From Escherichia phage 348Ecol098PP: a stretch of DNA of 64,000 bases. A model generated the notes under the pieces. That model saw only the letters and a program-made list of their open reading frames with translations. It was not told the DNA's origin and made no database searches. The stretch lies in the sequence record OR062947.1; one strand, given 5' to 3'. Shown here piece by piece: positions 3,445 through 61,760 of the stretch (position 1 is its first letter; each line of letters begins with the position of its first letter). A program made the position numbers and the translations under genes.

Positions 3445-3651
3445 ATGAGATTGATTATGAGAACTGAGGTTGAAGTTTATACATTACATGAGGCGGGATT
3501 TTCATTCGTAGAAATTGCTCAAAAAATCGGTTTACAACCTAAAGAAGTTGGATTACTATGGACTAAAGCCGAGATAGCTCGGTCAAAGTTTAAAGCAAAA
3601 GAAAAAGTTGTATACCGTAAACGTTTGATTAACAAAAAGGTGAAGAAATGA
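3445..3651 (+). CDS. Small basic protein with helix-turn-helix-like segment (T4 24.3 position)
   Basis: 68 aa ORF; FSFVEIAQKIGLQPKEV resembles HTH; lysine-rich tail. Confidence 0.4.
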   Translation: MRLIMRTEVEVYTLHEAGFSFVEIAQKIGLQPKEVGLLWTKAEIARSKFKAKEKVVYRKRLINKKVKK

Positions 3652-5049: not shown

Positions 5050-6333
5050 TTATTCATCTATAATAATTTTAGGCAATTTAACACCGAGTAAAACAGACAA
5101 GTCTGAACGTCCTGCCATTTTATCCATGTCCCCACCATCAATTATTCTCGCTTCTTTTTCGTCTTTTGCTACTGTGTAAGGATTTGCTGATAAAGCATAT
5201 CTAACCAATAATCCAATAGACGGTTGCAAGCTTTCTGGATCAACTACAACTTTAAATGCACCAACATGTTCCGGGTCATCTAAATCTACTCCTTCAGTGT
5301 ATGGAGCATAAAAGATGGACCCTACAATTTCTTTTTCGCCGATATTTTCTACAACACCCACAATAACATAATCTAACGGACTGTTGGTATCGCAGTAAAG
5401 AGGTAATCCATTTGCCAAGAATCCATAAGCATTTTGTGAAAGATACTTGTCATCTTCTGGCTTATGTTTTAACCAACCAGAAGCAGCAAGAATAGCAGCT
5501 GCACGAGCTGAGGCTACACAAAACGTTGCAGTATAAGTTGTCTCTTTTTGAATGTGTGATACCATTTCACACACCATTCGATATAATGAACGACCTGCTT
5601 CTGGAGCGGATGCATAGCTCAAGTCAATAAATCCAGTGTCAGTAATTCCAGTAACTTTATAACGTTTCGATACAGTAATTAAAGACTGAAGAATATCTTT
5701 ATTAATTTCATCAGCCATTTCAGTAGCAAGCAAATCTTCTAAGAAGTTAGGGGCATCAAATCCATTCGCTTCTAAATCTTGCGCTAATTCGACCGTGAGG
5801 CCAGTTTTAAGTTTACGAGATTTGACTGAAGTTTGCCATTTATTAATCTGGAATCTTGCATCAGAAATTTCGCTATCGGAGCTTTCAAATTTGCTTGTTA
5901 CCGCTGCATCTGAAAATAACCGTACCTTTAAATGAACGACTGCAATTTGAAGAGCTAATTCTAGATCACTTTCTTGAATATCTGCAAATGGTGTATCTTC
6001 TAACACCTTATAGACGATATTATTATATTTGAAAAAATCACCTTTATTTAGTGTGACTTTTGATTCTTCTGTGAGCTCAGTAATTTTTTCTCGGTCTACA
6101 TATCCAACTTCACCCGCATAAGTAGCACCAGTTTTAAATGTGAATTCATTATCTGGGTTAAGATATTTGATACCATAAAAAGCAGCAACAGGCTGATTAG
6201 TTCTTTGTGTTGCTACAATGTCAGAATATATTAATTTAGTCGTAGCGCGAGTCAAAGCAACGAGATTTGGGCGACCAATTGAGTTGCTAGTAGACGTTGT
6301 AGATTCACGCAATAATTTTTGGATTTTACTCAT
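5050..6333 (-). CDS. 24: Capsid vertex protein gp24
   Basis: 427 aa, same length as T4 gp24; synteny upstream of gene 23; late promoter at 6361-6368. Confidence 0.9.
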   Translation of the reverse strand: MSKIQKLLRESTTSTSNSIGRPNLVALTRATTKLIYSDIVATQRTNQPVAAFYGIKYLNPDNEFTFKTGATYAGEVGYVDREKITELTEESKVTLNKGDFFKYNNIVYKVLEDTPFADIQESDLELALQIAVVHLKVRLFSDAAVTSKFESSDSEISDARFQINKWQTSVKSRKLKTGLTVELAQDLEANGFDAPNFLEDLLATEMADEINKDILQSLITVSKRYKVTGITDTGFIDLSYASAPEAGRSLYRMVCEMVSHIQKETTYTATFCVASARAAAILAASGWLKHKPEDDKYLSQNAYGFLANGLPLYCDTNSPLDYVIVGVVENIGEKEIVGSIFYAPYTEGVDLDDPEHVGAFKVVVDPESLQPSIGLLVRYALSANPYTVAKDEKEARIIDGGDMDKMAGRSDLSVLLGVKLPKIIIDE

Positions 6334-6374: not shown

Positions 6375-6434
6375 GTTTACAACGTATTTGGTACGTGATA
6401 CTATAGACTTATCAACTACAGAGGAGTAAACAAA
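6375..6434 (+). promoter_or_regulatory. Early promoter cassette: -35 GTTTAC, 18 nt, extended -10 TGaTACTAT, 5'UTR with SD GAGGAG
   Basis: GTTTAC 6375-6380, TACTAT 6399-6404; 6395-6440 identical to 42998-43043. Confidence 0.6.
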
Positions 6435-6704
6435 ATGACTAAAGCACGTTTCTTACGAGATACTTTAAAAGTTCTGGAAGCTGAAGCAGTTAAGTTAGTA
6501 GAAAAATATGGTGCAAAAGTTAATGGTAATGCCTTCAACAAAGTATGGATGAAAGTTGATTCTGAAGCTCGAGCTAAAGGTTATTGGGCCACTGATAAAC
6601 TTGCATCATTCAAAAACAAAGACGGTTCTCCAGCATATGTCCAAGAAGGTATGCCTAATTGGCAAAATATTTTGAAAACTTACATCGAAATTGCACAGAA
6701 ATAA
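6435..6704 (+). CDS. Hypothetical protein expressed from an early-promoter cassette, antisense to flanking capsid genes
   Basis: 89 aa ORF with SD GAGGAG, own GTTTAC/-10 promoter, followed by hairpin terminator; sits between genes 24 and 23. Confidence 0.5.
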   Translation: MTKARFLRDTLKVLEAEAVKLVEKYGAKVNGNAFNKVWMKVDSEARAKGYWATDKLASFKNKDGSPAYVQEGMPNWQNILKTYIEIAQK

Positions 6705-32486: not shown

Positions 32487-33002
32487 TCACGGCCTCACAT
32501 AAACATAGTTTCGTAATTGATGGGCCCATTTGCTCCAATTTCCTACTATAGTTTTTGTATAAACCTTAGTAAGAGTTTTTTGTACTGGAGCTGGTGGAGG
32601 TTCTGTACCAGAGTCACTTCTAGAACCGCCTGATGAACTTTCTTCTTGGTAGTTATAAATCATTTCAACCGTATAACTAAACACTTTACGAAGATTCTGA
32701 GGAGCTCTCCACAAATATAACTGTGTGGATTCATCTTTTGGTAAATCATCCCATGAAGATGCGGTTTCAAAATCATCATTTAATCGGTATTTCAATGCAT
32801 CCGAAGAAAAGCTAAACACACTTTCATATATTCCATATAAACGATTGCCATCTACCGTAATGCCTTGTGTCGGTTCATAATCTGTTATATTTATTGACAC
32901 TAAAGTTTCGGTTGTTTCTAACTGTGGAGTAAAAAGGACGTCAATAGACGCCCCTTCCATGTCTTCTCCTAAGTCGGTATTTAAAGGAAGTATTTGTGCC
33001 AT
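32487..33002 (-). CDS. 5.1: Hypothetical protein in gp5-gp6 interval (5.1 position)
   Basis: 171 aa ORF between gene 5 and 5.4. Confidence 0.5.
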
Positions 33003-35314: not shown

Positions 35315-35341
35315 GATAGTCTCCTTCCAATATGAAATTGG

Positions 35342-35349
35342 TATAAATA
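35342..35349 (+). promoter_or_regulatory. Late promoter TATAAATA (gene 4)
   Basis: TATAAATA 27 nt upstream of gene 4 ATG. Confidence 0.6.
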
Positions 35350-35356
35350 ATAATAC

Positions 35357-35364
35357 TATTTATA
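35357..35364 (-). promoter_or_regulatory. Late promoter TATAAATA (gene 53), divergent from the gene 4 promoter
   Basis: Plus-strand TATTTATA upstream of gene 53 on minus strand. Confidence 0.55.
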
Positions 35365-35375
35365 AGGAGGACAAC

Positions 35376-35825
35376 ATGGCCTACTCTGGTAAATGGGTCC
35401 CAAAAAATTTAAAAAAATACCGTGGAGACCATACCAAAATAACGTATCGTTCAAACTGGGAAAAATTCTTTTTCGAATGGTTGGATAAAAATCCAGAAAT
35501 TATTGCATGGGGTAGTGAAACAGCAGTAATTCCATATTTTTGTAATGCTGAAGGTAAGAAACGTCGATACTATATGGACATATGGATGAAAGATGCATCA
35601 GGTCAAGAGTTTTTTGTAGAAATAAAACCAAAGAAAGAAACTCAACCACCTATTAAACCGGTGAATCTTACAACTGCGGCTAAGAAACGTTATATGAATG
35701 AAATATATACCTGGTCTGTGAACTGTGACAAATGGAAAGCTGCCTCAGCTGTTGCTGAAAAGAGAAATATAAAATTTCGAGTTCTAACCGAAGATGGTCT
35801 TAGAAAACTCGGATACAAGGGGTAA
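35376..35825 (+). CDS. 4: Head completion protein gp4
   Basis: 150 aa from [10 protein letters not shown] start with SD AAGGAGG; ORF-track upstream extension overlaps gene 53 and is rejected. Confidence 0.8.
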
Positions 35826-37336: not shown

Positions 37337-37389
37337 TCGCTTCTAGCTCCGTATGTTATAATCACTCATAAATTATATGAGGAAAACCT

Positions 37390-38124
37390 ATGGAGCTAAT
37401 CTTTTTAAGTGGCATCAAACGTAGTGGTAAAGACACTACTGCTGATTACATCAATTCAAACTTTAAATCCGTAAAATACCAATTGGCATATCCGATTAAA
37501 GACGCTCTAGCAATAGCCTGGGGACGTAGGCATGCTGAAAACCCTGATGTATTCACAGAGTTGAAATACGAATACTTTGAAGGCATTGGATACGACCGTG
37601 AAACACCATTAAATCTCAATAAGTTGGATGTTATTGAATTATTGGAAGAAGCGCTAATTTATTTGCAAAGTCAATATTTACCAATTAATAATGTTAAAGT
37701 ATTATCATCGTTAGAAGGTGGATATTCGTATCTAGATATTAAACCATATGAAGCCCTGCGTGAAGCTATAAATAATATCAACGACACATGGTCAATCCGC
37801 CGTCTTATGCAAGCCCTCGGTACGGATGTTGTCGTTAATTTATTTGACCGTATGTATTGGGTTAAACTTTTTGCATTAAACTATATGGATTATATTGGAA
37901 GTGATTTCGATTACTATGTCGTAACCGATACACGTCAAGTCCATGAAATGGAAACCGCTAGAGCGATGGGTGCTACAGTTATTCATGTGGTTCGCTCTGG
38001 TACGGAATCCACCGATAAACATATTACAGAAGCTGGGTTGCCTATTGAAGAAGGCGATTTAGTTATTACAAACGACGGCTCTTTAGAAGAGCTTTATTCT
38101 AAAATTGAAACAATCTTAAGGTAA
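37390..38124 (+). CDS. 1: Deoxynucleoside monophosphate kinase
   Basis: 244 aa; P-loop GIKRSGKDT; synteny 3-1-57A. Confidence 0.9.
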   Translation: MELIFLSGIKRSGKDTTADYINSNFKSVKYQLAYPIKDALAIAWGRRHAENPDVFTELKYEYFEGIGYDRETPLNLNKLDVIELLEEALIYLQSQYLPINNVKVLSSLEGGYSYLDIKPYEALREAINNINDTWSIRRLMQALGTDVVVNLFDRMYWVKLFALNYMDYIGSDFDYYVVTDTRQVHEMETARAMGATVIHVVRSGTESTDKHITEAGLPIEEGDLVITNDGSLEELYSKIETILR

Positions 38125-38827: not shown

Positions 38828-38857
38828 GTTTACATAAAGATGATGGTGTGTTACTAT
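38828..38857 (+). promoter_or_regulatory. Early promoter GTTTAC / TGTTACTAT
   Basis: GTTTAC 38828-38833, 18-nt spacer, TACTAT 38852-38857. Confidence 0.55.
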
Positions 38858-38891
38858 CATCCTATCAAATAAACAGCCTCAAGGAAATAAA

Positions 38892-39203: not shown

Positions 39204-39241
39204 TTTACAACTTGATAGGACTACTATATCATAGTCCTATC
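39203..39241 (+). promoter_or_regulatory. Early promoter-like element inside a 10-bp inverted repeat GATAGGACTA / TAGTCCTATC
   Basis: aTTTACa 39203-39209; IR arms 39214-39223 and 39232-39241. Confidence 0.45.
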
Positions 39242-39264
39242 AAAATAACCAAATGGAACCTAAA

Positions 39265-41033: not shown

Positions 41034-41107
41034 GGCCCTGTAGCTCAACGGTTAGCAGCAGTCCCCTCATAAGGGAAAGGTTACCAGTTCGAATCTGGTC
41101 TGGGTCA
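41034..41107 (+). tRNA. tRNA with anticodon CAU (Ile2/Met type; T4 tRNA-Ile uses CAU)
   Basis: Hand-folded cloverleaf: acceptor GGCCCUG, T-arm ACCAG-UUCGAAU-CUGGU, anticodon loop CUCAUAA; one acceptor mismatch and a weak outer anticodon-stem pair; no encoded CCA. Confidence 0.55.
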
Positions 41108-41113
41108 TATATT

Positions 41114-41189
41114 CGAGGCATAGCTCAGAAGGAAGAGCAAGGACCTTCTAAGTCCTAGGTCGTAGGTTCGATCCCTACTGTCTCGACCA
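41114..41189 (+). tRNA. tRNA-Arg (anticodon UCU)
   Basis: Hand-folded canonical cloverleaf: acceptor CGAGGCA/UGUCUCG, D-arm GCUC-AGAAGGAA-GAGC, anticodon arm AGGAC-CUUCUAA-GUCCU, T-arm GUAGG-UUCGAUC-CCUAC, encoded CCA. Confidence 0.8.
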
Positions 41190-41851: not shown

Positions 41852-41884
41852 TATAGCCCCTTCCGAAAGGTTGGGGCTTTTTTG
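41852..41884 (+). terminator. Rho-independent terminator after tRNA/small-RNA region
   Basis: AGCCCCTTCCGAAAGGTTGGGGCT + TTTTTT; same module as 57113-57145. Confidence 0.65.
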
Positions 41885-43546: not shown

Positions 43547-44140
43547 ATGAACACACTGAAGAAACTTGTCGAATTCATCCGCACTAAATTGGGTACTGCT
43601 ATGGCTAAAAATCTGACTGTCGAAGAACAGTATAACGCAGCTGCAGATAAGTTGATTACCCAAATCAAAGAACTAAAAACGGCTTCTGTTAAATCTATTA
43701 ATGAAGAAAAACGTATTCGCGAACTTGTTAATGAAAAGAACAAGCAAGCCGCTTCTAAGGAACGTGAAATTCGTAAGCTCCTGGCCGAAGGACAAGATGT
43801 TACCATGCATGCTAAGCTTGGTCTTCTGTATCGTCGAACTGCCGAACAACTTAATACAAAAGCTGACGGGTATGCCGCTATGCGAATTGAAATTGCTCGT
43901 AAGGTGGTTGAACTTGATGATGCTCGTCAGAACCTGGCAATCAAACTCGAATACATTCGTGAAACTCGAGCAGCCAATGCCCTTGGTATCTCTACGGCCG
44001 ATGATGTAATTGAAATCGCTGCACTGACTAAGGTTGATATCGAAGACACTCTGACTCGTGTTGAAACGTTCAATGGCACTCCAGCAGGTGTCGAAACCAC
44101 TTCTGCTGATGTACAAGAATATATTAACTCTTTGAAATAA
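43547..44140 (+). CDS. Coiled-coil protein with PspA/IM30-like character
   Basis: 197 aa from [10 protein letters not shown]; long amphipathic heptad pattern; segment pattern reminiscent of PspA (weak, by eye). Confidence 0.35.
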
Positions 44141-46050: not shown

Positions 46051-46088
46051 GTTTACAACAAGATAGGGCTATGTTATAGTAGTCCTAT
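46051..46088 (+). promoter_or_regulatory. Early promoter GTTTAC / TGTTATAGT with imperfect IR ATAGGGCT / AGTCCTAT
   Basis: GTTTAC 46051-46056, TATAGT 46075-46080. Confidence 0.55.
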
Positions 46089-46108
46089 CAAATTAAATGG
46101 AGTCCACA

Positions 46109-47345: not shown

Positions 47346-47383
47346 GTTTACGCAATTATAGGACTATGTTATAGTAGTCCTAT
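47346..47383 (+). promoter_or_regulatory. Early promoter GTTTAC / TGTTATAGT inside IR AATAGGACTA / TAGTCCTATT
   Basis: GTTTAC 47346-47351, TATAGT 47370-47375; IR arms 47357-47366 and 47374-47383. Confidence 0.55.
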
Positions 47384-49557: not shown

Positions 49558-49565
49558 GTAATAAA

Positions 49566-49589
49566 TACCTCCTATAAACGTGGGAGGTA
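49566..49589 (+). promoter_or_regulatory. Gene e translation-initiation hairpin: IR TACCTCC / GGAGGTA with TATAAAcg in the loop
   Basis: Arms 49566-49572 and 49583-49589; right arm is the SD of e; loop carries a late-promoter-like box. Confidence 0.5.
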
Positions 49590-49591
49590 TT

Positions 49592-50080
49592 ATGAATATA
49601 TTTGAAATGCTTCGTAATGACGAAGGTCTTAGACTGACTTTATATAAAGACACTGAAGGCTTTTGGACGATTGGCATAGGCCATTTAGTAACAAAGAACC
49701 CGTCTTTAGCCGTAGCTAAAGCTGAACTTGACAGAATGATCGGTCGTAAATGCAACGGTACAATTACCCTTGATGAGGCTGAAAAGCTATTTAATGAAGA
49801 CGTTGATAAAGCCGTTCGCGGAATCTTGGGTAATGCTAAACTTAAACCGGTATACGATTCTTTAGATGCAGTTCGTCGATGTGCATTGGTCAATATGGTC
49901 TTCCAAATGGGTGTAGCAGGCGTCGCCGGTTTTACTAATTCTCTTCGTATGCTTCAACAGAAACGTTGGGATGAAGCGGCAGTAAATCTAGCCCAATCTA
50001 AATGGTATCGTCAGACACCTAATCGCGCGAAACGCGTAATCTCAACATTTAAAACAGGAACTTGGAAAGCGTATATATGA
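49592..50080 (+). CDS. e: Endolysin (T4 lysozyme)
   Basis: 162 aa from [32 protein letters not shown]...; close match to remembered T4 lysozyme. Confidence 0.95.
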
Positions 50081-50358
50081 AAACATATAGTGAATTTTTA
50101 TCAGAATCTATTCTTAACGAAGCTACTGACACATTTGCAACTAAGCTAGGTGCAGCTTTGGTTGAAGCTGAAAGTCTATTAGCACGTATTTCTGAACTTG
50201 CTAGTAAGATAGATACTCGCAAATTTGAGCGCACCAGTGATATCGTTAAGCTTGAAGCCTTATTGCGTATGTGCGATAAACCGGAAGAAATCGCTAAGAA
50301 CGGCTCGCTGATGAAACAACGTCTTGAAAAATATATTTCAGGCGCTTCAGAAAAATAG
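50077..50358 (+). CDS. Internal-protein-like, leader [10 protein letters not shown]
   Basis: 93 aa; start overlaps e stop (ATGA); CTS-like leader. Confidence 0.55.
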
Positions 50359-50359
50359 T

Positions 50360-50413
50360 GTTTACTTCCTCCAAGGGTTTTGATACTATACATTCATCAA
50401 CTACTTGGAGGAA
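50360..50413 (+). promoter_or_regulatory. Early promoter upstream of denV with 10-bp IR TTCCTCCAAG / CTTGGAGGAA pairing the -35/-10 spacer with the SD
   Basis: GTTTAC 50360-50365, TACTAT 50384-50389; IR arms 50366-50375 and 50404-50413. Confidence 0.6.
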
Positions 50414-50416
50414 ATT

Positions 50417-50830
50417 ATGACTCGTATCAATTTAACACTTGTTTCTGAACTGACCGACCAACACCTTATGGCTGAGTATCGTGAATTACCACGCGTATTT
50501 GGTGCAGTCCGTAAACATGTTCAAAACGGTAAACGTGTAAAGGATTTTAAAATCTCTCCAACATTTATCTTAGGCACAGGTCACGTAACATTCTTTTACG
50601 ACAAACTCGAATTTTTACGTTTACGACAAATCGAGCTAATCGCTGAATGTTTGAAACGTGGTTTCAAAATCAAGGACACGACAGTCCAGGATATTTCCGA
50701 CATCCCTGCCGAATTTCGTAATAATTATGTCCCGTCCGAAGCGTCCATTGCGATAAGTCAAGCGCGCTTAGATGAAAAAATTGCTCAACGTCCGACTTGG
50801 TACAAATACTATGGTAAATCAATTTACTAA
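50417..50830 (+). CDS. denV: Endonuclease V (pyrimidine dimer DNA glycosylase)
   Basis: 137 aa from [12 protein letters not shown]...; close match to remembered T4 DenV. Confidence 0.93.
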
Positions 50831-50836
50831 GGAAAA

Positions 50837-51097
50837 ATGAAAATGTATCAAGAATTTATCGTTGAAGCAGATGCCAAAGGTCCTAAATTTAAAGTTAAAG
50901 CTTTCATTGGTGATGCGGAAGACTTTGGCTCATTAAAACGTAATGGGTATTCTTTCTTAGGTGGCAATGGTAAAGAAATCAACACCTATGCAAAACGTAG
51001 TGAAATTGCTTATGTTGTAGCAAGTCCTAAAGTAGATGTTGACGATATTGGATATGATTTTAACAACTTCGGAATTATTTCTGGCGGTAAAGCTTAA
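50837..51097 (+). CDS. Internal-protein-like, leader MKMYQEFIVE
   Basis: 86 aa; CTS-like leader. Confidence 0.55.
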   Translation: MKMYQEFIVEADAKGPKFKVKAFIGDAEDFGSLKRNGYSFLGGNGKEINTYAKRSEIAYVVASPKVDVDDIGYDFNNFGIISGGKA

Positions 51098-51100
51098 ACG

Positions 51101-51130
51101 GTTTACGCTTAAGTATTAATATGGTATAAT
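51101..51130 (+). promoter_or_regulatory. Early promoter GTTTAC / TGGTATAAT
   Basis: GTTTAC 51101-51106, 18-nt spacer, TATAAT 51125-51130. Confidence 0.55.
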
Positions 51131-51161
51131 TACTCTATCAAAACAAACAAGGAAACAAAAA

Positions 51162-51476
51162 ATGAAAACGTATAAAGAATTTATTGCAGAATCCGCCAAC
51201 CAACGCGTTGAAGGTGGTTATATTTGGATTGAACAAGTTGAGCCACCGAGCCGCACTTCTACAGGTAAATGGAAAATTACTGTTGACGGTCCTGGCGGTA
51301 AACGTAGGACTCTTAAAGAAATTAATGGGTACTATGAAGAAGCTCTTTCGGATGCAGGAACTTACATGATGCAAATCATGATTAAAAACCCTGAAAACCG
51401 TTTTGCAGCTAAAGTCTTCCGTCGTATTGGTAATAAACTTTATGATGCATACTCTAAAAACTTCCCTAAAGAATAA
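51162..51476 (+). CDS. Internal-protein-like, leader MKTYKEFIAE
   Basis: 104 aa; CTS-like leader; early promoter 51101-51130. Confidence 0.6.
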   Translation: MKTYKEFIAESANQRVEGGYIWIEQVEPPSRTSTGKWKITVDGPGGKRRTLKEINGYYEEALSDAGTYMMQIMIKNPENRFAAKVFRRIGNKLYDAYSKNFPKE

Positions 51477-52854: not shown

Positions 52855-53217
52855 ATGAAAGCATATCAAATTCTTGAAGGTGCACATAAAGGCACTATTT
52901 ATTTTGAAGACGGTACTCAAGCCCGGATTATTGTCTCTAAGACTTTTAAAGAAGACTCTATTGTAGACCCGGAAATTTTCTATGGTTTGAATGCCCGTGA
53001 AATTGAAATTGAACATCAACCTAAAGTTAAAATTGAAGGTGGTCAACATCTGAACGTTAACGTTCTGCGTCGTGAAACTCTAGAAGATGCAGTTAAGCAT
53101 CCGGAAAAATATCCGCAGCTGACCATCCGTGTATCCGGTTATGCAGTTCGCTTTAACTCTCTGACTCCAGAACAGCAGCGCGACGTTATCGCTCGTACCT
53201 TTACTGAGAGTCTATAA
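52855..53217 (+). CDS. Autonomous glycyl-radical cofactor (GrcA/YfiD-like; T4 tk.4/Y06I type)
   Basis: 120 aa; C-terminal ...[60 protein letters not shown] contains RVSGY glycyl-radical motif. Confidence 0.8.
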
Positions 53218-53441
53218 TGGCTAAATTGATTATAGAAGGGTCTGAAGATGTTTTAAAATGTTTTGCCGCCTGGTTTAGTTGCTCAGGCGAGCAATCATTC
53301 ATTGAAGCATTTAGAACGGGTGATATTACTGGAAAATATCCGTCAACCGATATCACTGTACGCGGATATGGTATTAATGAGCCTATCCAATTGGTCGAAT
53401 ATGACCTTGCCACCGATGAGGAAATTCCTTATGTCGATTGA
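53217..53441 (+). CDS. Hypothetical protein
   Basis: 74 aa ORF. Confidence 0.4.
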   Translation: MAKLIIEGSEDVLKCFAAWFSCSGEQSFIEAFRTGDITGKYPSTDITVRGYGINEPIQLVEYDLATDEEIPYVD

Positions 53442-53697
53442 AGACATCAAAGGCTACAAGCCGCATACCGATGATAAAATCAGTAAAGTGAACGCTATTA
53501 AAGACGCAGAAGTCCGTCTTGGATTGTTGTTTGATGCTCTGATTGAAGAAGCATATATCTTGAAAGAAAACGAAACAGAGCAACAAACCAAAGAAGATAT
53601 GGATGCAGTGCAGGCTCTTAAGTATGCTAAGCAACATCTAAAAGAAGCCAGCATGTGGGCATGTCGTGCGGTATTTCGACCTGAGGAAAAATACTAA
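53431..53697 (+). CDS. Hypothetical protein
   Basis: 88 aa from MSIEDIKGYK with SD GAGGAA. Confidence 0.4.
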   Translation: MSIEDIKGYKPHTDDKISKVNAIKDAEVRLGLLFDALIEEAYILKENETEQQTKEDMDAVQALKYAKQHLKEASMWACRAVFRPEEKY

Positions 53698-53912
53698 TGG
53701 CTTCTACTATTACTGGGTTATTGGACTTTCAAGAAAAGGTCAACAAAATTTGTAGTGAATACTTAAAGTATCTTGAAGAAGACCTTGAAGATTGTAAGGA
53801 AGAAGGCGAAGAAGACTATGCTGACCAGCGTCGTCGCCAAATCGAAGAGATGAGGCATTTCGCCAATATGGTATCTAAAGAATCTTGGGCTTTAACTCCA
53901 TTTTATCAATAA
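53697..53912 (+). CDS. Hypothetical acidic protein
   Basis: 71 aa ORF. Confidence 0.4.
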   Translation: MASTITGLLDFQEKVNKICSEYLKYLEEDLEDCKEEGEEDYADQRRRQIEEMRHFANMVSKESWALTPFYQ

Positions 53913-53916
53913 AGTA

Positions 53917-53967
53917 GTTTACTTCTCCTCTAGTTGTGTTACTATAGACCTGTCAACTAGAGGAGAA
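53917..53967 (+). promoter_or_regulatory. regB early promoter with perfect 14-bp IR TTCTCCTCTAGTTG / CAACTAGAGGAGAA (spacer vs SD)
   Basis: GTTTAC 53917-53922, TACTAT 53940-53945; IR arms 53923-53936 and 53954-53967. Confidence 0.65.
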
Positions 53968-53973
53968 ATCAAA

Positions 53974-54432
53974 ATGACTATCAATTCAGACGTTTTTATC
54001 CGCCGTAATAAACTCCGTCGAATCTTTGAAACGGAGTTCCGCAAAATAAATGCCGGTATAAAAGATGCTGCAAAGTCTCTTGGACTACCAGGCTTTCATA
54101 TCAAGTATTCTCAACATCTCTTAGATCGTGCCATCCAGAGAGAAATAGATGAGAATTACGTTTTTGAATTATTTCATAAAGTAAAAAATCATGTTAAAGA
54201 AGTTGCAGAATTTTTATCAATGCCGGCACGTCCAGATGTTGATGAAGATTTTGTCGAAGGTGTCGAATATCGCCCAGGCCGTTTAGAAATAACTGATGGA
54301 AATCTTTGGTTAGGACTTACAGTTTGTCGCGAAAATCCAGCATTCAAAATGAAGACTCTTCAATGCAGAATGGCTATTATTAACAGTAAACGACTACCAG
54401 GAAAAGCTTCTAAAGCAGTGATTAAAATCTAG
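53974..54432 (+). CDS. regB: RegB endoribonuclease
   Basis: 152 aa; MTINSDVFIRRNKLRR...YSQHLLDRAIQREIDE...RLPGKASKAVIK matches remembered T4 RegB. Confidence 0.9.
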   Translation: MTINSDVFIRRNKLRRIFETEFRKINAGIKDAAKSLGLPGFHIKYSQHLLDRAIQREIDENYVFELFHKVKNHVKEVAEFLSMPARPDVDEDFVEGVEYRPGRLEITDGNLWLGLTVCRENPAFKMKTLQCRMAIINSKRLPGKASKAVIKI

Positions 54433-54440
54433 AGGTAAAC

Positions 54441-54983
54441 ATGAGAAAAGCACTACTCGCTGGTCTATTTGCTCTTTCGTTATCAGCACATAGCTCCGAG
54501 CATACTTTTAGTAATGTCCAACTCGATAACTTGAATTATGCTTATCAGTTTGGGGAACAGTTTTCTAAGGACGGAAAATTTAAAACGCATGAAAATATGC
54601 ATAAGAAAGGACTTGGATACATAATGGCCGCAATACTATGGCAAGAATCATCTGCCGGTATTAATCTTAAAGATAAGAAAGGTCACCATGCGTATGGAAT
54701 GTTCCAAAACTATCTACCGTCAATGAGGGCAAGAATTAACCAGCTTGGTTATAATATGACTGATGCCCAAATTAAGAAAATGCTATCTAAGCGGTCTAAT
54801 TCAGCCAGATGGGCTTATATCGAATTTTCTTATTGGTTAAATATACATAATGGGGATATAAGAAAAGCTATATCCTCATATAATGCGGGATGGAAGACAA
54901 GTGCTGGAAGTAAATATGCTTCTGAAGTCCTAGAAAAGGCTAATTACCTTAAATCAAATAAACTACTGGAAATAAAAGAATGA
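54441..54983 (+). CDS. Secreted lytic transglycosylase (SLT-domain) protein
   Basis: 180 aa; N-terminal signal peptide; SLT-like motifs WQESS, AYGMFQ, YNAG. Confidence 0.55.
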   Translation: MRKALLAGLFALSLSAHSSEHTFSNVQLDNLNYAYQFGEQFSKDGKFKTHENMHKKGLGYIMAAILWQESSAGINLKDKKGHHAYGMFQNYLPSMRARINQLGYNMTDAQIKKMLSKRSNSARWAYIEFSYWLNIHNGDIRKAISSYNAGWKTSAGSKYASEVLEKANYLKSNKLLEIKE

Positions 54984-55327
54984 CCAAAATGTTGGCTTTA
55001 ATAGTTGGCTTGGTTTCATTTAACGCTCTTGCTAATACTACATATACTGATGTAACGGAGTATACAAACAGAACGGCGTCTGATTATTGTGGTAAAAGTC
55101 AAGAGTGTAAAGTAGATTTTTCACAAAAATTGTTATATGCGTATAAAGACGGAGAAAAAGATGGGGCGTCTAGTAGGTTCAAGGCGTCTACCTTAATTAA
55201 AAGATACTATAAAAAATGGCAAATATTAGAATGCTCGGTGGCGGAACCTAAAGATAAGGCAGCATGCAATTCTATGGTGGACCGTCTAGTTGACTCTTAT
55301 ACTAGAGGACTTGCAGCAAGTGATTAA
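54980..55327 (+). CDS. Predicted exported/periplasmic protein
   Basis: 115 aa; signal peptide MTKMLALIVGLVSFNALA; 4 Cys. Confidence 0.45.
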   Translation: MTKMLALIVGLVSFNALANTTYTDVTEYTNRTASDYCGKSQECKVDFSQKLLYAYKDGEKDGASSRFKASTLIKRYYKKWQILECSVAEPKDKAACNSMVDRLVDSYTRGLAASD

Positions 55328-55784
55328 AAACTATATCAAGGGCGATATTGTCGCCCTGTTTTCTAAAGGTAATAATATTGCTCATGGGTGTAATTGTTTT
55401 CATACAATGGGCGCTGGTGTGGCAGGACAATTAGCAAAGGCTTATCCAAAAATTCTGGAAGCCGATAAACTTCAAACCGAATTCGGAGACGAGTCTAAAC
55501 TCGGGACTTATTCGGTTTATGAAAAATATTTTAAGACCCATAAAGCTTATTGCTTTAATCTTTATACACAGTTTGAGCCGGGACCTAATTTTGAGTACTC
55601 TGCTTTAATGAATTGTATAATAGAATTAAATGAATTCGGAAAGAATAAGATAACAAAGCCTGTAATTTATATGCCAAGAATTGGTGCAGGTATTGGTGGT
55701 GGAAACTGGGACGTCATCGAAGAGATTTTAGATACGTATTCTACTAAACTAGAAATTGTGATTGTTGATTGGGAACCTAAATGA
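55320..55784 (+). CDS. Macro-domain protein (ADP-ribose binding/processing)
   Basis: Macro-like motifs GDIV...IAHGCNC...GAGVAGQLAKA and IGAGIGGG; start uncertain (GTG 55320 or TTG 55290). Confidence 0.5.
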   Translation: MIKNYIKGDIVALFSKGNNIAHGCNCFHTMGAGVAGQLAKAYPKILEADKLQTEFGDESKLGTYSVYEKYFKTHKAYCFNLYTQFEPGPNFEYSALMNCIIELNEFGKNKITKPVIYMPRIGAGIGGGNWDVIEEILDTYSTKLEIVIVDWEPK

Positions 55785-57112: not shown

Positions 57113-57145
57113 ACTAGCCCCTTCCGAAAGGTTGGGGCTTTTTGG
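57113..57145 (+). terminator. Rho-independent terminator after rI
   Basis: Same hairpin+T-run module as 41852-41884. Confidence 0.65.
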
Positions 57146-57154
57146 CATCTATCA

Positions 57155-57206
57155 GTTTACTTCTCCTCAGGTTGTGTTATAGTAAACCTTACTTACTAGA
57201 GGAGAA
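57155..57206 (+). promoter_or_regulatory. Early promoter with IR TTCTCCTC / GAGGAGAA (spacer vs SD)
   Basis: GTTTAC 57155-57160, TATAGT 57179-57184; IR 57161-57168 and 57199-57206. Confidence 0.55.
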
Positions 57207-57210
57207 CGTT

Positions 57211-57390
57211 ATGTCACGTAAAGAAAAAATTTCTAAGTTAATGTTTTTGATTGAAGAGTACGCTAATGCGGTATCTGATTGGGAAAATGCTCATGGTTGC
57301 GAAGATGGAGACATCGACATTAACAGAGCTATGAAAAAGATGGCTGATACGCACACCGAATTGCAAATGTATGTTAACGAGATTATGTGA
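57211..57390 (+). CDS. Hypothetical protein
   Basis: 59 aa from MSRKEK with SD GAGGAGAA. Confidence 0.4.
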   Translation: MSRKEKISKLMFLIEEYANAVSDWENAHGCEDGDIDINRAMKKMADTHTELQMYVNEIM

Positions 57391-57397
57391 GGACATT

Positions 57398-57607
57398 ATG
57401 CTTTACGATTATACTGGAAAATCTGAAGACGGTGTACTTGAACTTTTACCTGAAAGTGCTGAAGATGATGATATGACGACGGTGATGTTTTGTAAAAATG
57501 GCCCTGGGGATAAGGGATGGATTTATCTTCGTCAAGAAAATGACTTAATTGTTTTGGACCCTAAACAAGTTGAAGAACTTTATCAACATTTAAAACACAA
57601 TCGGTAG
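57398..57607 (+). CDS. Hypothetical acidic protein
   Basis: 69 aa from MLYDYTGK. Confidence 0.4.
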   Translation: MLYDYTGKSEDGVLELLPESAEDDDMTTVMFCKNGPGDKGWIYLRQENDLIVLDPKQVEELYQHLKHNR

Positions 57608-57645
57608 TTTACAACTTGGTAGGACTATGTTATAGTAGTCCTACC
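57607..57645 (+). promoter_or_regulatory. Early promoter inside IR GGTAGGACTA / TAGTCCTACC
   Basis: GTTTAC 57607-57612, TATAGT 57631-57636; IR 57618-57627 and 57636-57645. Confidence 0.55.
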
Positions 57646-57664
57646 AAAACAAATGGAGAACAAA

Positions 57665-61725: not shown

Positions 61726-61760
61726 GTTTACAAGGTCTATGGTTATGTTATTATAGACCT
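61726..61760 (+). promoter_or_regulatory. Early promoter GTTTAC / TGTTATTAT with IR AGGTCTA / TAGACCT
   Basis: GTTTAC 61726-61731, TATTAT 61749-61754; IR 61733-61739 and 61754-61760. Confidence 0.5.

Follow-up and report, generated by a model that had tools for sequence, protein, structure and literature searches.

The leaders of two genes, regB and denV, were analysed on a 64,000-nucleotide (nt) stretch of Escherichia phage 348Ecol098PP (OR062947.1; the whole of this stretch is referred to as the window), with regard to an inverted repeat that connects the promoter of each gene to its own ribosome-binding site (RBS). The window was found to represent an RB69-like Mosigvirus (Straboviridae), with bases 53000-55500 matching RB69 and its relatives at 98.7-99.0% identity, and its plus strand is equivalent to the minus (early-gene) strand of RB69. 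Through 98.7% DNA identity, the RB69 annotation names the genes at the three sites considered here as denV, regB, and a mobD.2a homologue. The open reading frame (ORF) upstream of regB, an early gene, is a homologue of RB69ORF117c and ends in a stop codon (TAA, 53910-53912) located 4 nt 5′ of the regB -35 element, and transcripts that run across this ORF enter the regB leader. Within the leader, a perfect 14-bp inverted repeat joins the spacer between the -35 and -10 elements to the Shine-Dalgarno (SD) sequence, and a perfect 10-bp repeat joins the same two regions in the leader of denV (Table 1). At its length the regB repeat is unique in the window (loops of up to 45 nt), where first-order Markov shuffles give a chance expectation of 0.04 per 64 kb; perfect repeats of at least 12 bp were otherwise detected only at 39212 and 57616, both inside early promoters. 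The regB repeat had been described in an earlier reading of the letters of this DNA (the original prediction) as a perfect 14-bp inverted repeat with its right arm over the SD GAGGAG, and all coordinates and sequences given there, for this and the other two sites, were found to be right.

Predicted occlusion of the regB and denV start regions

Folding of the read-through leaders, i.e., of RNA that enters from upstream, yielded -22.3 kcal/mol for regB (z -3.77; equalled by 1 of 200 shuffles) and -19.8 kcal/mol for denV (z -3.71; equalled by none of 200). Occlusion was expressed as an opening energy, defined as the free energy (kcal/mol) required to hold the SD through the AUG unpaired, with read-through RNA modelled from 30 nt 5′ of the -35 element and own-promoter RNA modelled from 7 nt past the -10 element. 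The opening energy of regB was 17.3 in read-through RNA versus 2.7 in own-promoter RNA, with a spacer-shuffle null of 5.5 ± 2.0, while that of denV was 13.5 versus 2.8, with a null of 4.8 ± 1.3; for neither gene did any of the 200 shuffles reach the observed value. The own-promoter RNAs of both genes, taken from their predicted starts, fold weakly (-2.1 to -2.5 kcal/mol). Since the left arm is 5′ of the -10 element, transcripts of the regB and denV promoters are without it wherever the exact start falls. These computed costs (13-17 kcal/mol in read-through RNA versus about 2.7 in promoter-initiated RNA) are in agreement with the original prediction, by which promoter-initiated RNA is missing the left arm and has a free SD, whereas read-through RNA hides the SD.

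Table 1. Positions of the features discussed for the regB, denV, mobD.2a, and gene e leaders of the window
Feature	Position	Strand	Sequence or remark	Basis
Upstream ORF (RB69ORF117c homologue)	53697..53912	+		ORF list, RB69 annotation
regB early promoter, -35	53917..53922	+	GTTTAC	sequence
regB left arm (anti-SD)	53923..53936	+	TTCTCCTCTAGTTG; within the -35/-10 spacer	sequence, inverted-repeat scan, folding
regB extended -10 and -10	53937..53945	+	TGT, then TACTAT (53940-53945); in hairpin loop	sequence, promoter scan
regB transcription start (predicted)	53952	+	7 nt past the -10	inferred from sigma-70 geometry
regB right arm	53954..53967	+	CAACTAGAGGAGAA; holds SD GAGGAG (53960-53965) and RegB motif GGAG (53962-53965)	
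regB coding sequence	53974..54432	+	152 aa; ATG at 53974	ORF list, RB69 annotation
denV early promoter, -35	50360..50365	+	GTTTAC; upstream ORF stop TAG at 50356-50358	sequence, promoter scan
denV left arm	50366..50375	+	TTCCTCCAAG; in spacer	sequence, folding
denV -10	50384..50389	+	TACTAT; predicted start near 50396	sequence, promoter scan
denV right arm	50404..50413	+	CTTGGAGGAA; holds SD GGAGG	sequence, folding
denV coding sequence	50417..50830	+	137 aa	ORF list, RB69 annotation
Third cassette, 5′ of mobD.2a homologue	57155..57206	+	ATG at 57211	-35 GTTTAC 57155-57160, -10 TATAGT 57178-57183
Third-site left arm	57161..57168	+	TTCTCCTC; 8 bp	
Third-site right arm	57199..57206	+	GAGGAGAA; 8 bp	
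Intrinsic terminator, directly 5′ of third cassette	57116..57144	+	AGCCCCTTCCGAAAGGTTGGGGCT and T-run	
Gene e leader hairpin (positive control)	49565..49594	+	ATACCTCC at 49565, GGAGGTAT at 49583; ATG at 49592	

The start regions of regB and denV were compared with the other SD-preceded candidate starts of the window (83 in all; median opening energy 4.2). On the gene-bearing strand the highest values were found for gene e (15.0), regB (14.1), gene 1 (14.0), denV (10.6), and mobD.2a (9.6), and in each of these five leaders a promoter motif is located between or within the arms; a candidate ORF of the minus strand, at 32529, scores 10.8 and is also among the top set. The gene e leader, which served as positive control, carries late-promoter-like TATAA motifs in and before its loop, and the corresponding T4 leader (93 nt) has a predicted fold of -17.8 kcal/mol, similar in stability to the regB and denV hairpins. 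In T4, this hairpin is reported to cut lysozyme synthesis about 100-fold (PMC3014915).

Transcription from upstream was considered in terms of terminators and promoters. A custom scan for plus-strand hairpins followed by T-runs between 36 and 64 kb returned only 41878, 44167, 55359, and 57139, the last of which represents a real terminator at 57116 that a consensus terminator scan had missed; by the custom scan, no plus-strand intrinsic terminator is present between 44167 and 55359, leaving about 10 kb upstream of the leaders free. With early-promoter motifs at 46051, 47346, 50360, and 51101 in addition, transcription would be expected to cross the denV and regB leaders and to generate read-through RNA over both. 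A strict search of the window for MotA boxes returned none that would place a middle promoter in the denV-regB interval, so read-through here would rest on the upstream early promoters; the mapped T4 middle promoters include Pvs.7 upstream of regB and PipIII upstream of denV (PMC2988021 Table 1).

Conservation of the pairing in T4-like phages

Orthologous leaders were collected from IMG/VR and GenBank, folded sequence by sequence, and examined by ungapped comparison of the arms. Predicted occlusion was found in 15 of 18 regB leaders and in all 29 promoter-bearing denV leaders of other T4-like phages, T4 included, with opening energies of 7-21 kcal/mol in read-through RNA versus 0.5-4 kcal/mol in own-promoter RNA; in most cases, the observed value was reached by at most 5 out of 100 shuffles in which spacer and discriminator were randomised. 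The feature that is constant across orthologues is the pairing of the translation start region with a segment 5′ of the predicted start, while the position and sequence of the hairpin vary: the left arm occupies either the spacer or the -10/+1 region, and is always 5′ of the predicted start. For regB, the stems include (i) that of Mosigvirus, TTCTCCTCTAGTTG / CAACTAGAGGAGAA, in which a C-to-T change in ESCO47 retains a G.U pair; (ii) that of T4, TTTTCCTCTTGACTG / CAGTTAAGAGGAGAA, with 15 bp of which two are G.U pairs; (iii) a Gelderlandvirus-like stem, TTTCTCCTCTTTATG / CATAAAGAGGAGAAA; and (iv) a Dhakavirus-like stem, TCTCCTGTAAG / CTTACAGGAGA. Shorter regB stems were found in Jiaodavirus-like IMG/VR contigs (an assignment made in this analysis), Karamvirus, and Kagamiyamavirus, and in Gaprivervirus and Tegunavirus the arm is supplied by the -10/+1 region. 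The regB pairing is absent from one Marfavirus phage and from two promoter-bearing leaders of Aeromonas type, and the regB leaders of Krischvirus and Jiangsuvirus have no recognisable early promoter. The denV orthologues display about 12 distinct stems, some with spacer arms that adjoin the -35 element (TCTCCTGTAG/CTACAGGAGA in T4, TCTCCGTTTG/CAAACGGAGA, and TCTCCTGTG/CACAGGAGA) and others with arms over the end of the -10 element and the discriminator (GTCCTCCTA/TAGGAGGAC and ATGATGTCTTCC/GGAGGACATCAT among them), some of which pair with the AUG as well. The compensatory substitutions across genera indicate that the pairing is maintained by selection, and this comparative evidence at regB and denV is the strongest part of the case.

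The association of the two arms was also examined from one arm only, by searching IMG/VR with the left-arm 14-mer GTTTACTTCTCCTC alone and seeking GAGGAGAA 30-75 nt downstream. The 14-mer was found in 92 distinct contexts, 16 of which have a correctly spaced -10 element; GAGGAGAA is located downstream in 10 of these 16 and in none of the 76 that lack such an element (Fisher p = 1e-9). Past GTTTACTTCTCCTC, the flanks vary by family yet are complementary (TAGTTG/CAACTA, TGGTT/AACCA, ATG/CAT, TTTTCT/AGAAAA, and TTCTTTG/CAAAGAA), except in the family of the 8-bp mobD.2a type. An uncharacterised 21-kb viral contig (L163, IMGVR_UViG_3300013233_000202) holds two such spacer-SD cassettes, at 5799-5870 and 6127-6190, which are 328 nt apart and have an identical 14-mer after the -35 element but different, fully compensated stem extensions.

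Several denV loci were found to differ in their surroundings. In a T4-like contig (L047, IMGVR_UViG_2974787500_000001) compared with window positions 50017-51300, identity is 95-99.5% between -400 and the denV ATG, falls to 87% in the first 140 nt of the gene, and is 62-66% beyond them; this drop marks a recombination junction at or just past the promoter cassette, as is predicted by the gene-shuffling model of promoter early stem-loops (PeSLs). In another leader (L048), denV is placed behind a promoter cassette of the T4 ipIII type. The denV leaders of jumbo phages (L053, L055, L059, and L061; phage contigs of 345-378 kb) carry, about 60 nt 5′ of denV, a terminator hairpin GGGTTGACTTCGGTCAGCCC followed by TTTTT, with the -35 element within the terminator stem and TATAAT directly after it; this compact composite of terminator and promoter has no SD pairing.

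Related leaders and early-promoter cassettes

A scan of the rest of RB69 revealed the same arrangement at motB.2 (TTCTCCTCTGGTT/AACCAGAGGAGAA; opening 18.6 versus 2.0 kcal/mol), modB (18.6 versus 4.1), and ORF040c (TTCTCCAGTAG/CTACTGGAGAA; 15.1 versus 3.4), with weaker cases at an ORF with a predicted ATG at 43873, at motA, and at ORF245c. T4 motB.2 (14.2) and modB (15.9) are occluded as well. The proposal that the element is a reusable cassette is borne out by these further strong copies. In the window itself, the leader of gene 1 (dNMP kinase; 37338-37398) pairs TAGCTCCGTA (37344-37353) with TATGGAGCTA (37389-37398), sequesters the AUG at 37390, and has an opening energy of 14.0; a TGT-TATAAT element (37354-37362) and a MotA-box-like sequence, CGCTTCTA, are located between and over the arms, and the mapped T4 middle promoter P1 is at the corresponding place. 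Going by its sequence, the gene 1 leader appears to use this device with a middle promoter in place of an early one. At gene 4 (head completion; 35319-35378), the leader has arms GTCTCCTTC and AAGGAGGAC with a late motif, TATAAATA (35342), in the loop, an arrangement of the gene e type that is of moderate strength (opening 6.6).

Hairpins of this kind have been described for T4 e, soc, 49, and I-TevI, in which the SD/AUG is buried in a hairpin when transcription starts at an upstream promoter and the RNA of an internal promoter, without the 5′ arm, is translated (PMC3014915 section 29). According to a T4 review, the genes known to be under such RBS-hairpin control "are all late genes" (PMC2988022). 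The leaders of T4 e, soc, 49, I-TevI, and segB and of Aeh1 mobE are like those of regB and denV in that the SD and/or AUG is sequestered and a promoter is within the structure (PMC3014915, PMC2988022). The difference is that the T4 late cases have a late (gp55) promoter and delayed expression, whereas regB and denV have a sigma-70 early promoter with an arm in its spacer and would be expected to be confined to the first minutes. In keeping with the RBS-sequestering class as a whole, a stable helix over the SD/AUG, a promoter that bypasses the 5′ arm (from its predicted start), and compensatory changes were found; the embedded late promoter (TATAAATA) and late product of the T4 late-gene subclass were not found for regB, the promoter of which is GTTTAC-N17/18-TAnnnT. 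The original comparison with the logic of T4 gene e is consistent with the window scan, in which the e hairpin scores like that of regB (15.0 versus 14.1).

Outside the T4-like phages, a comparable device is that of IS10, in which only read-through RNA forms the structure, the 5′ arm being absent from RNA made at its own sigma-70 promoter. Given these details, IS10 would be the closest mechanistic match. In IS10, however, the device belongs to a single-copy transposable element and acts against host transcription, whereas here it is found at several genes of one phage, with an arm in the promoter spacer, and would insulate against early and middle transcription that the phage itself directs from further upstream. 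Sequestration of the translation signals of the IS10/Tn10 transposase in secondary structure is attributed to Davis, Simons and Kleckner (1985, Cell 43:379) where that work is cited in PMC13181058. In the reviews consulted, no mention was found of a hairpin between the regB SD and spacer, and only late genes are listed for such control. T4 has been studied for decades, and the structures have probably been seen before, even if their function is absent from these reviews. Valerie et al. (1986) reportedly noted stem-loops before T4 ipIII, ipII, denV, and orf61.9 on sequencing the region.

The T4-type early-promoter pattern (sigma-70 type, GTTTAC-N17/18-TAnnnT) was detected by the promoter scan at about 15 plus-strand gene starts of the window, and about 25 further cassettes are present elsewhere in RB69, each consisting of a strong sigma-70-like early promoter followed by an SD and ATG. 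A second class of hairpin was found in the cassettes at 39212-39243, 46062-46091, 47358-47383, 57616-57647, 61733-61760, and 38839-38862, in which the spacer arm pairs with the region just 3′ of the -10 element (e.g., TTGATAGGACTA/TAGTCCTATCAA) and the SD is unpaired. Its paralogues display compensatory changes (39212 versus 57616) and one G.U pair (46062); these hairpins fit the PeSL type in which the stem-loop overlaps the -10 element, and T4 ipII, dmd, and motB are arranged likewise. In a further cassette (6375-6437), the -35 element itself, (T)GTTTAC, pairs with GTAAAC(A) between the SD and ATG, and the opening energy (8.1 in read-through RNA versus 2.1) is unaffected by spacer shuffles because the arm is the -35 element. 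A consensus early promoter at 3530-3620 (GTTTAC-N18-TACTAT) is followed by a hairpin, GCCGAGATAGCTCGGT, with no SD/ATG nearby and is possibly a small RNA or a remnant. The terminator hairpin AGCCCCTTCCGAAAGGTTGGGGCT (24 nt) with its T-run is present in identical form at 41855-41883 and 57116-57144, each time just 5′ of an early region or cassette. When the whole window was searched with Rfam covariance models, only two tRNAs (41034-41186) reached the gathering score and the leader hairpins were unmatched.

Alternative explanations and proposed mechanism

We consider it probable that fold-back occlusion of the RBS insulates regB, denV, and similarly built genes against transcription from upstream and confines their translation to an immediate-early burst. 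In such a mechanism, the 5′ part of the -35/-10 spacer would serve as an anti-SD. A polymerase arriving from an upstream promoter would transcribe both arms, and the nascent read-through RNA would form a hairpin of 10-14 bp (about -20 kcal/mol) in which (i) the SD is buried, leaving 30S subunits unable to initiate on regB or denV; and (ii) the GGAG is shielded from RegB. RNA from the embedded promoter would start about 7 nt past the -10 element, 3′ of the left arm, and with its unstructured leader of about 22 nt would be translated and, in the case of regB, cut by RegB. RegB, DenV, ModB, and MotB.2 would be made only from the immediate-early transcripts of their own promoters, as a pulse of protein that is not extended by delayed-early or middle read-through transcripts.

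The element might instead act as an attenuator or terminator of upstream transcription of the PeSL type, with the cassette being mainly a recombination site for gene shuffling and the SD overlap incidental, an explanation that we regard as unlikely. By definition, a PeSL combines an early promoter with a stem-loop and an SD/ATG, and one RB49 stem-loop lowered reporter expression like a strong terminator (PMC2839356, PMC4122927). The PeSLs (Arbiol 2010; Comeau 2014) and the window cassettes are alike in having an AT-rich upstream region, a strong early promoter, a stem-loop, and an SD with ATG, and in being repeated in variable early regions and tied to mosaic junctions; the window cassettes resemble one another, and the L047 junction is near the denV cassette. 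Stem-loops of PeSLs have been placed upstream of the -35 element, over it, between the two boxes, over the -10 element, or before the start, with termination/attenuation and recombination as their roles (PMC2839356). None of these five positions reaches the SD and PeSL stem-loops never pair with it, whereas the right arm of regB and denV is the SD, 3′ of the start; the sister cassettes at 39212, 46062, 47358, 57616, and 61733 do occupy a PeSL position. By the consensus terminator scan, the regB and denV hairpins are not terminator-like, having loops of 17-28 nt and no U-tract, whereas the true terminators of the window are GC-rich with T-runs; the sequence 3′ of the regB stem, AAATCAAAATG, does not complete the combination of GC-rich stem, short loop, and U-run that marks an intrinsic terminator. 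The left arm is in the spacer in some lineages and in the -10/+1 region in others, but its partner is consistently the SD (at times with the AUG), which neither a terminator nor a recombination site would need; recombination can explain the likeness between copies but not the complementarity within each copy when the stems are different and compensated. The regB and denV elements appear, from their sequence, to be PeSL-like in composition without being PeSL terminators, one defining PeSL feature being absent; the resemblance to PeSLs that was originally proposed holds for the composition of the cassette but not for the position of the stem-loop or its reach to the SD, and a terminator function finds no support in the sequence.

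Protection of RNA was also considered, in which the hairpin would shield the GGAG of a long polycistronic RNA from RegB cleavage and the ensuing decay by RNase E/G, preserving the downstream cistrons and affecting translation only secondarily. RegB cuts GGAG in SD regions, its own SD included, and is inhibited by secondary structure (PMC3014915, PMC1702504), and the occluded regB arm contains GAGGAG. As the main function this is nonetheless quite improbable, for the denV hairpin is found in nearly all lineages although the T4 denV SD is resistant to RegB by its sequence (PMC1702504), the AUG is paired in addition in several leaders (L042, L052, and T4 modB), and the cassettes at 57607 and 60251 match the RegB consensus GGAGRAYARAA well yet have a free SD. 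Protection from RegB was rejected as a general function on account of the resistant denV that keeps its hairpin and of the good RegB-consensus SDs elsewhere that are unpaired; at regB it may be an additional benefit. The original link to RegB is likewise upheld in part, as the regB GGAG is located in the arm and structure blocks RegB in T4, but it is not specific, given the hairpin of RegB-resistant denV. Since in T4 the regB SD is itself a target of RegB and secondary structure guards against cleavage (PMC3014915), it is likely, by analogy, that only promoter-initiated regB RNA is cleavable, and the hairpin would add to RegB autoregulation at this SD a second layer that chooses the translatable and cleavable transcripts.

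Coupling of regB and denV translation on long RNA to ribosomes of the upstream ORF, which would melt the stem, is very unlikely. The upstream stops are 1-5 nt before the -35 element and 7-11 nt before the left arm, in the window as well as in orthologues. A ribosome at such a stop would cover roughly the -35 hexamer and, by this footprint estimate, would open at most 0-3 bp of a stem of 10-14 bp, with the SD about 40 nt further downstream; tight spacing is to be expected of a compact genome anyway. A function at the level of DNA seems remoter still, whether the repeat were to form a cruciform or single-strand hairpin and thereby modulate the opening of the promoter, or to be a palindrome bound by a protein. 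The symmetric regB repeat folds comparably on the minus strand (-22.9 kcal/mol), and the sister class of hairpins has the -10 element in its loop. However, complementarity is kept while the arm sequences are not, contrary to what a protein-binding site would show, and the left arm pairs in every case with the translation start region. Among the non-Watson-Crick oppositions in the stems, 11 are of the G.U type versus 4 of the A.C type, which favours a sense-strand RNA, with the asymmetry being marginal (p ~0.06) and the lineages not independent.

This marginal asymmetry is one of several points that weigh against RBS occlusion as proposed. About two-thirds of the early-promoter cassettes have a free SD without pairing, and many of these hold the other type of hairpin, with the -10 element in the loop; one explanation, such as attenuation or a role at the DNA level, may account for both types. 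The transcription starts are predicted from promoter geometry; the T4 GenBank and RefSeq records were found to contain no promoter features, and a search for T4 dRNA-seq or Cappable-seq data sets turned up none. Stems of 10 bp might be partly opened by ribosomal protein S1 or by ribosomes terminating at the nearby upstream stop. The site 5′ of mobD.2a is the weakest example: its opening energy of 10.5 in read-through RNA versus 2.7 in own-promoter RNA was reached by 21 of 200 spacer shuffles (null 6.8 ± 2.6), its leader fold of -15.3 kcal/mol (z -1.21) was matched by 24 of 200 shuffles and is not significant alone, and the strong terminator directly upstream leaves little read-through for it to be insulated from. 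The claim that regB, denV, and 57161-57206 have the same architecture was upheld for denV (10 bp, z -3.71), with the third site being weak (8 bp, z -1.21). Overall, the observation behind the original prediction is confirmed, and its interpretation, although a predicted one, has support from in silico results and from strong comparative evidence.

The principle of RBS sequestration is already textbook knowledge (gene e and IS10); here it is set in an early promoter, and the gain is in scope and in evolutionary evidence. Among the stem-loops so far classed together as PeSLs, two kinds can now be separated, one pairing with the SD and the other having the -10 element in its loop. Should the hairpins act as predicted, they would add a layer to the control of early genes in T4-type phages, in that shut-off of the promoter would become shut-off of synthesis for a defined set of potentially harmful enzymes (among them the nuclease RegB, the ADP-ribosyltransferase ModB, and the glycosylase DenV), even with read-through from upstream early and middle promoters continuing. 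For engineered phages, a design rule would follow, namely that an anti-SD placed in the otherwise free promoter spacer insulates a gene. More tentatively, and at somewhat less than even odds in our estimation, the Tevenvirinae may have a conserved class of immediate-early-only genes (regB, denV, modB, and motB.2), whose translation is strictly tied to their own early promoter by the embedded anti-SD, with the arm moving between spacer and -10/+1 region over evolution and its function being retained. If so, the hairpin would decide which regB transcripts RegB can cut, and the class would account for part of the abrupt stop in early-protein synthesis that occurs at promoter shut-off despite persisting read-through RNA.

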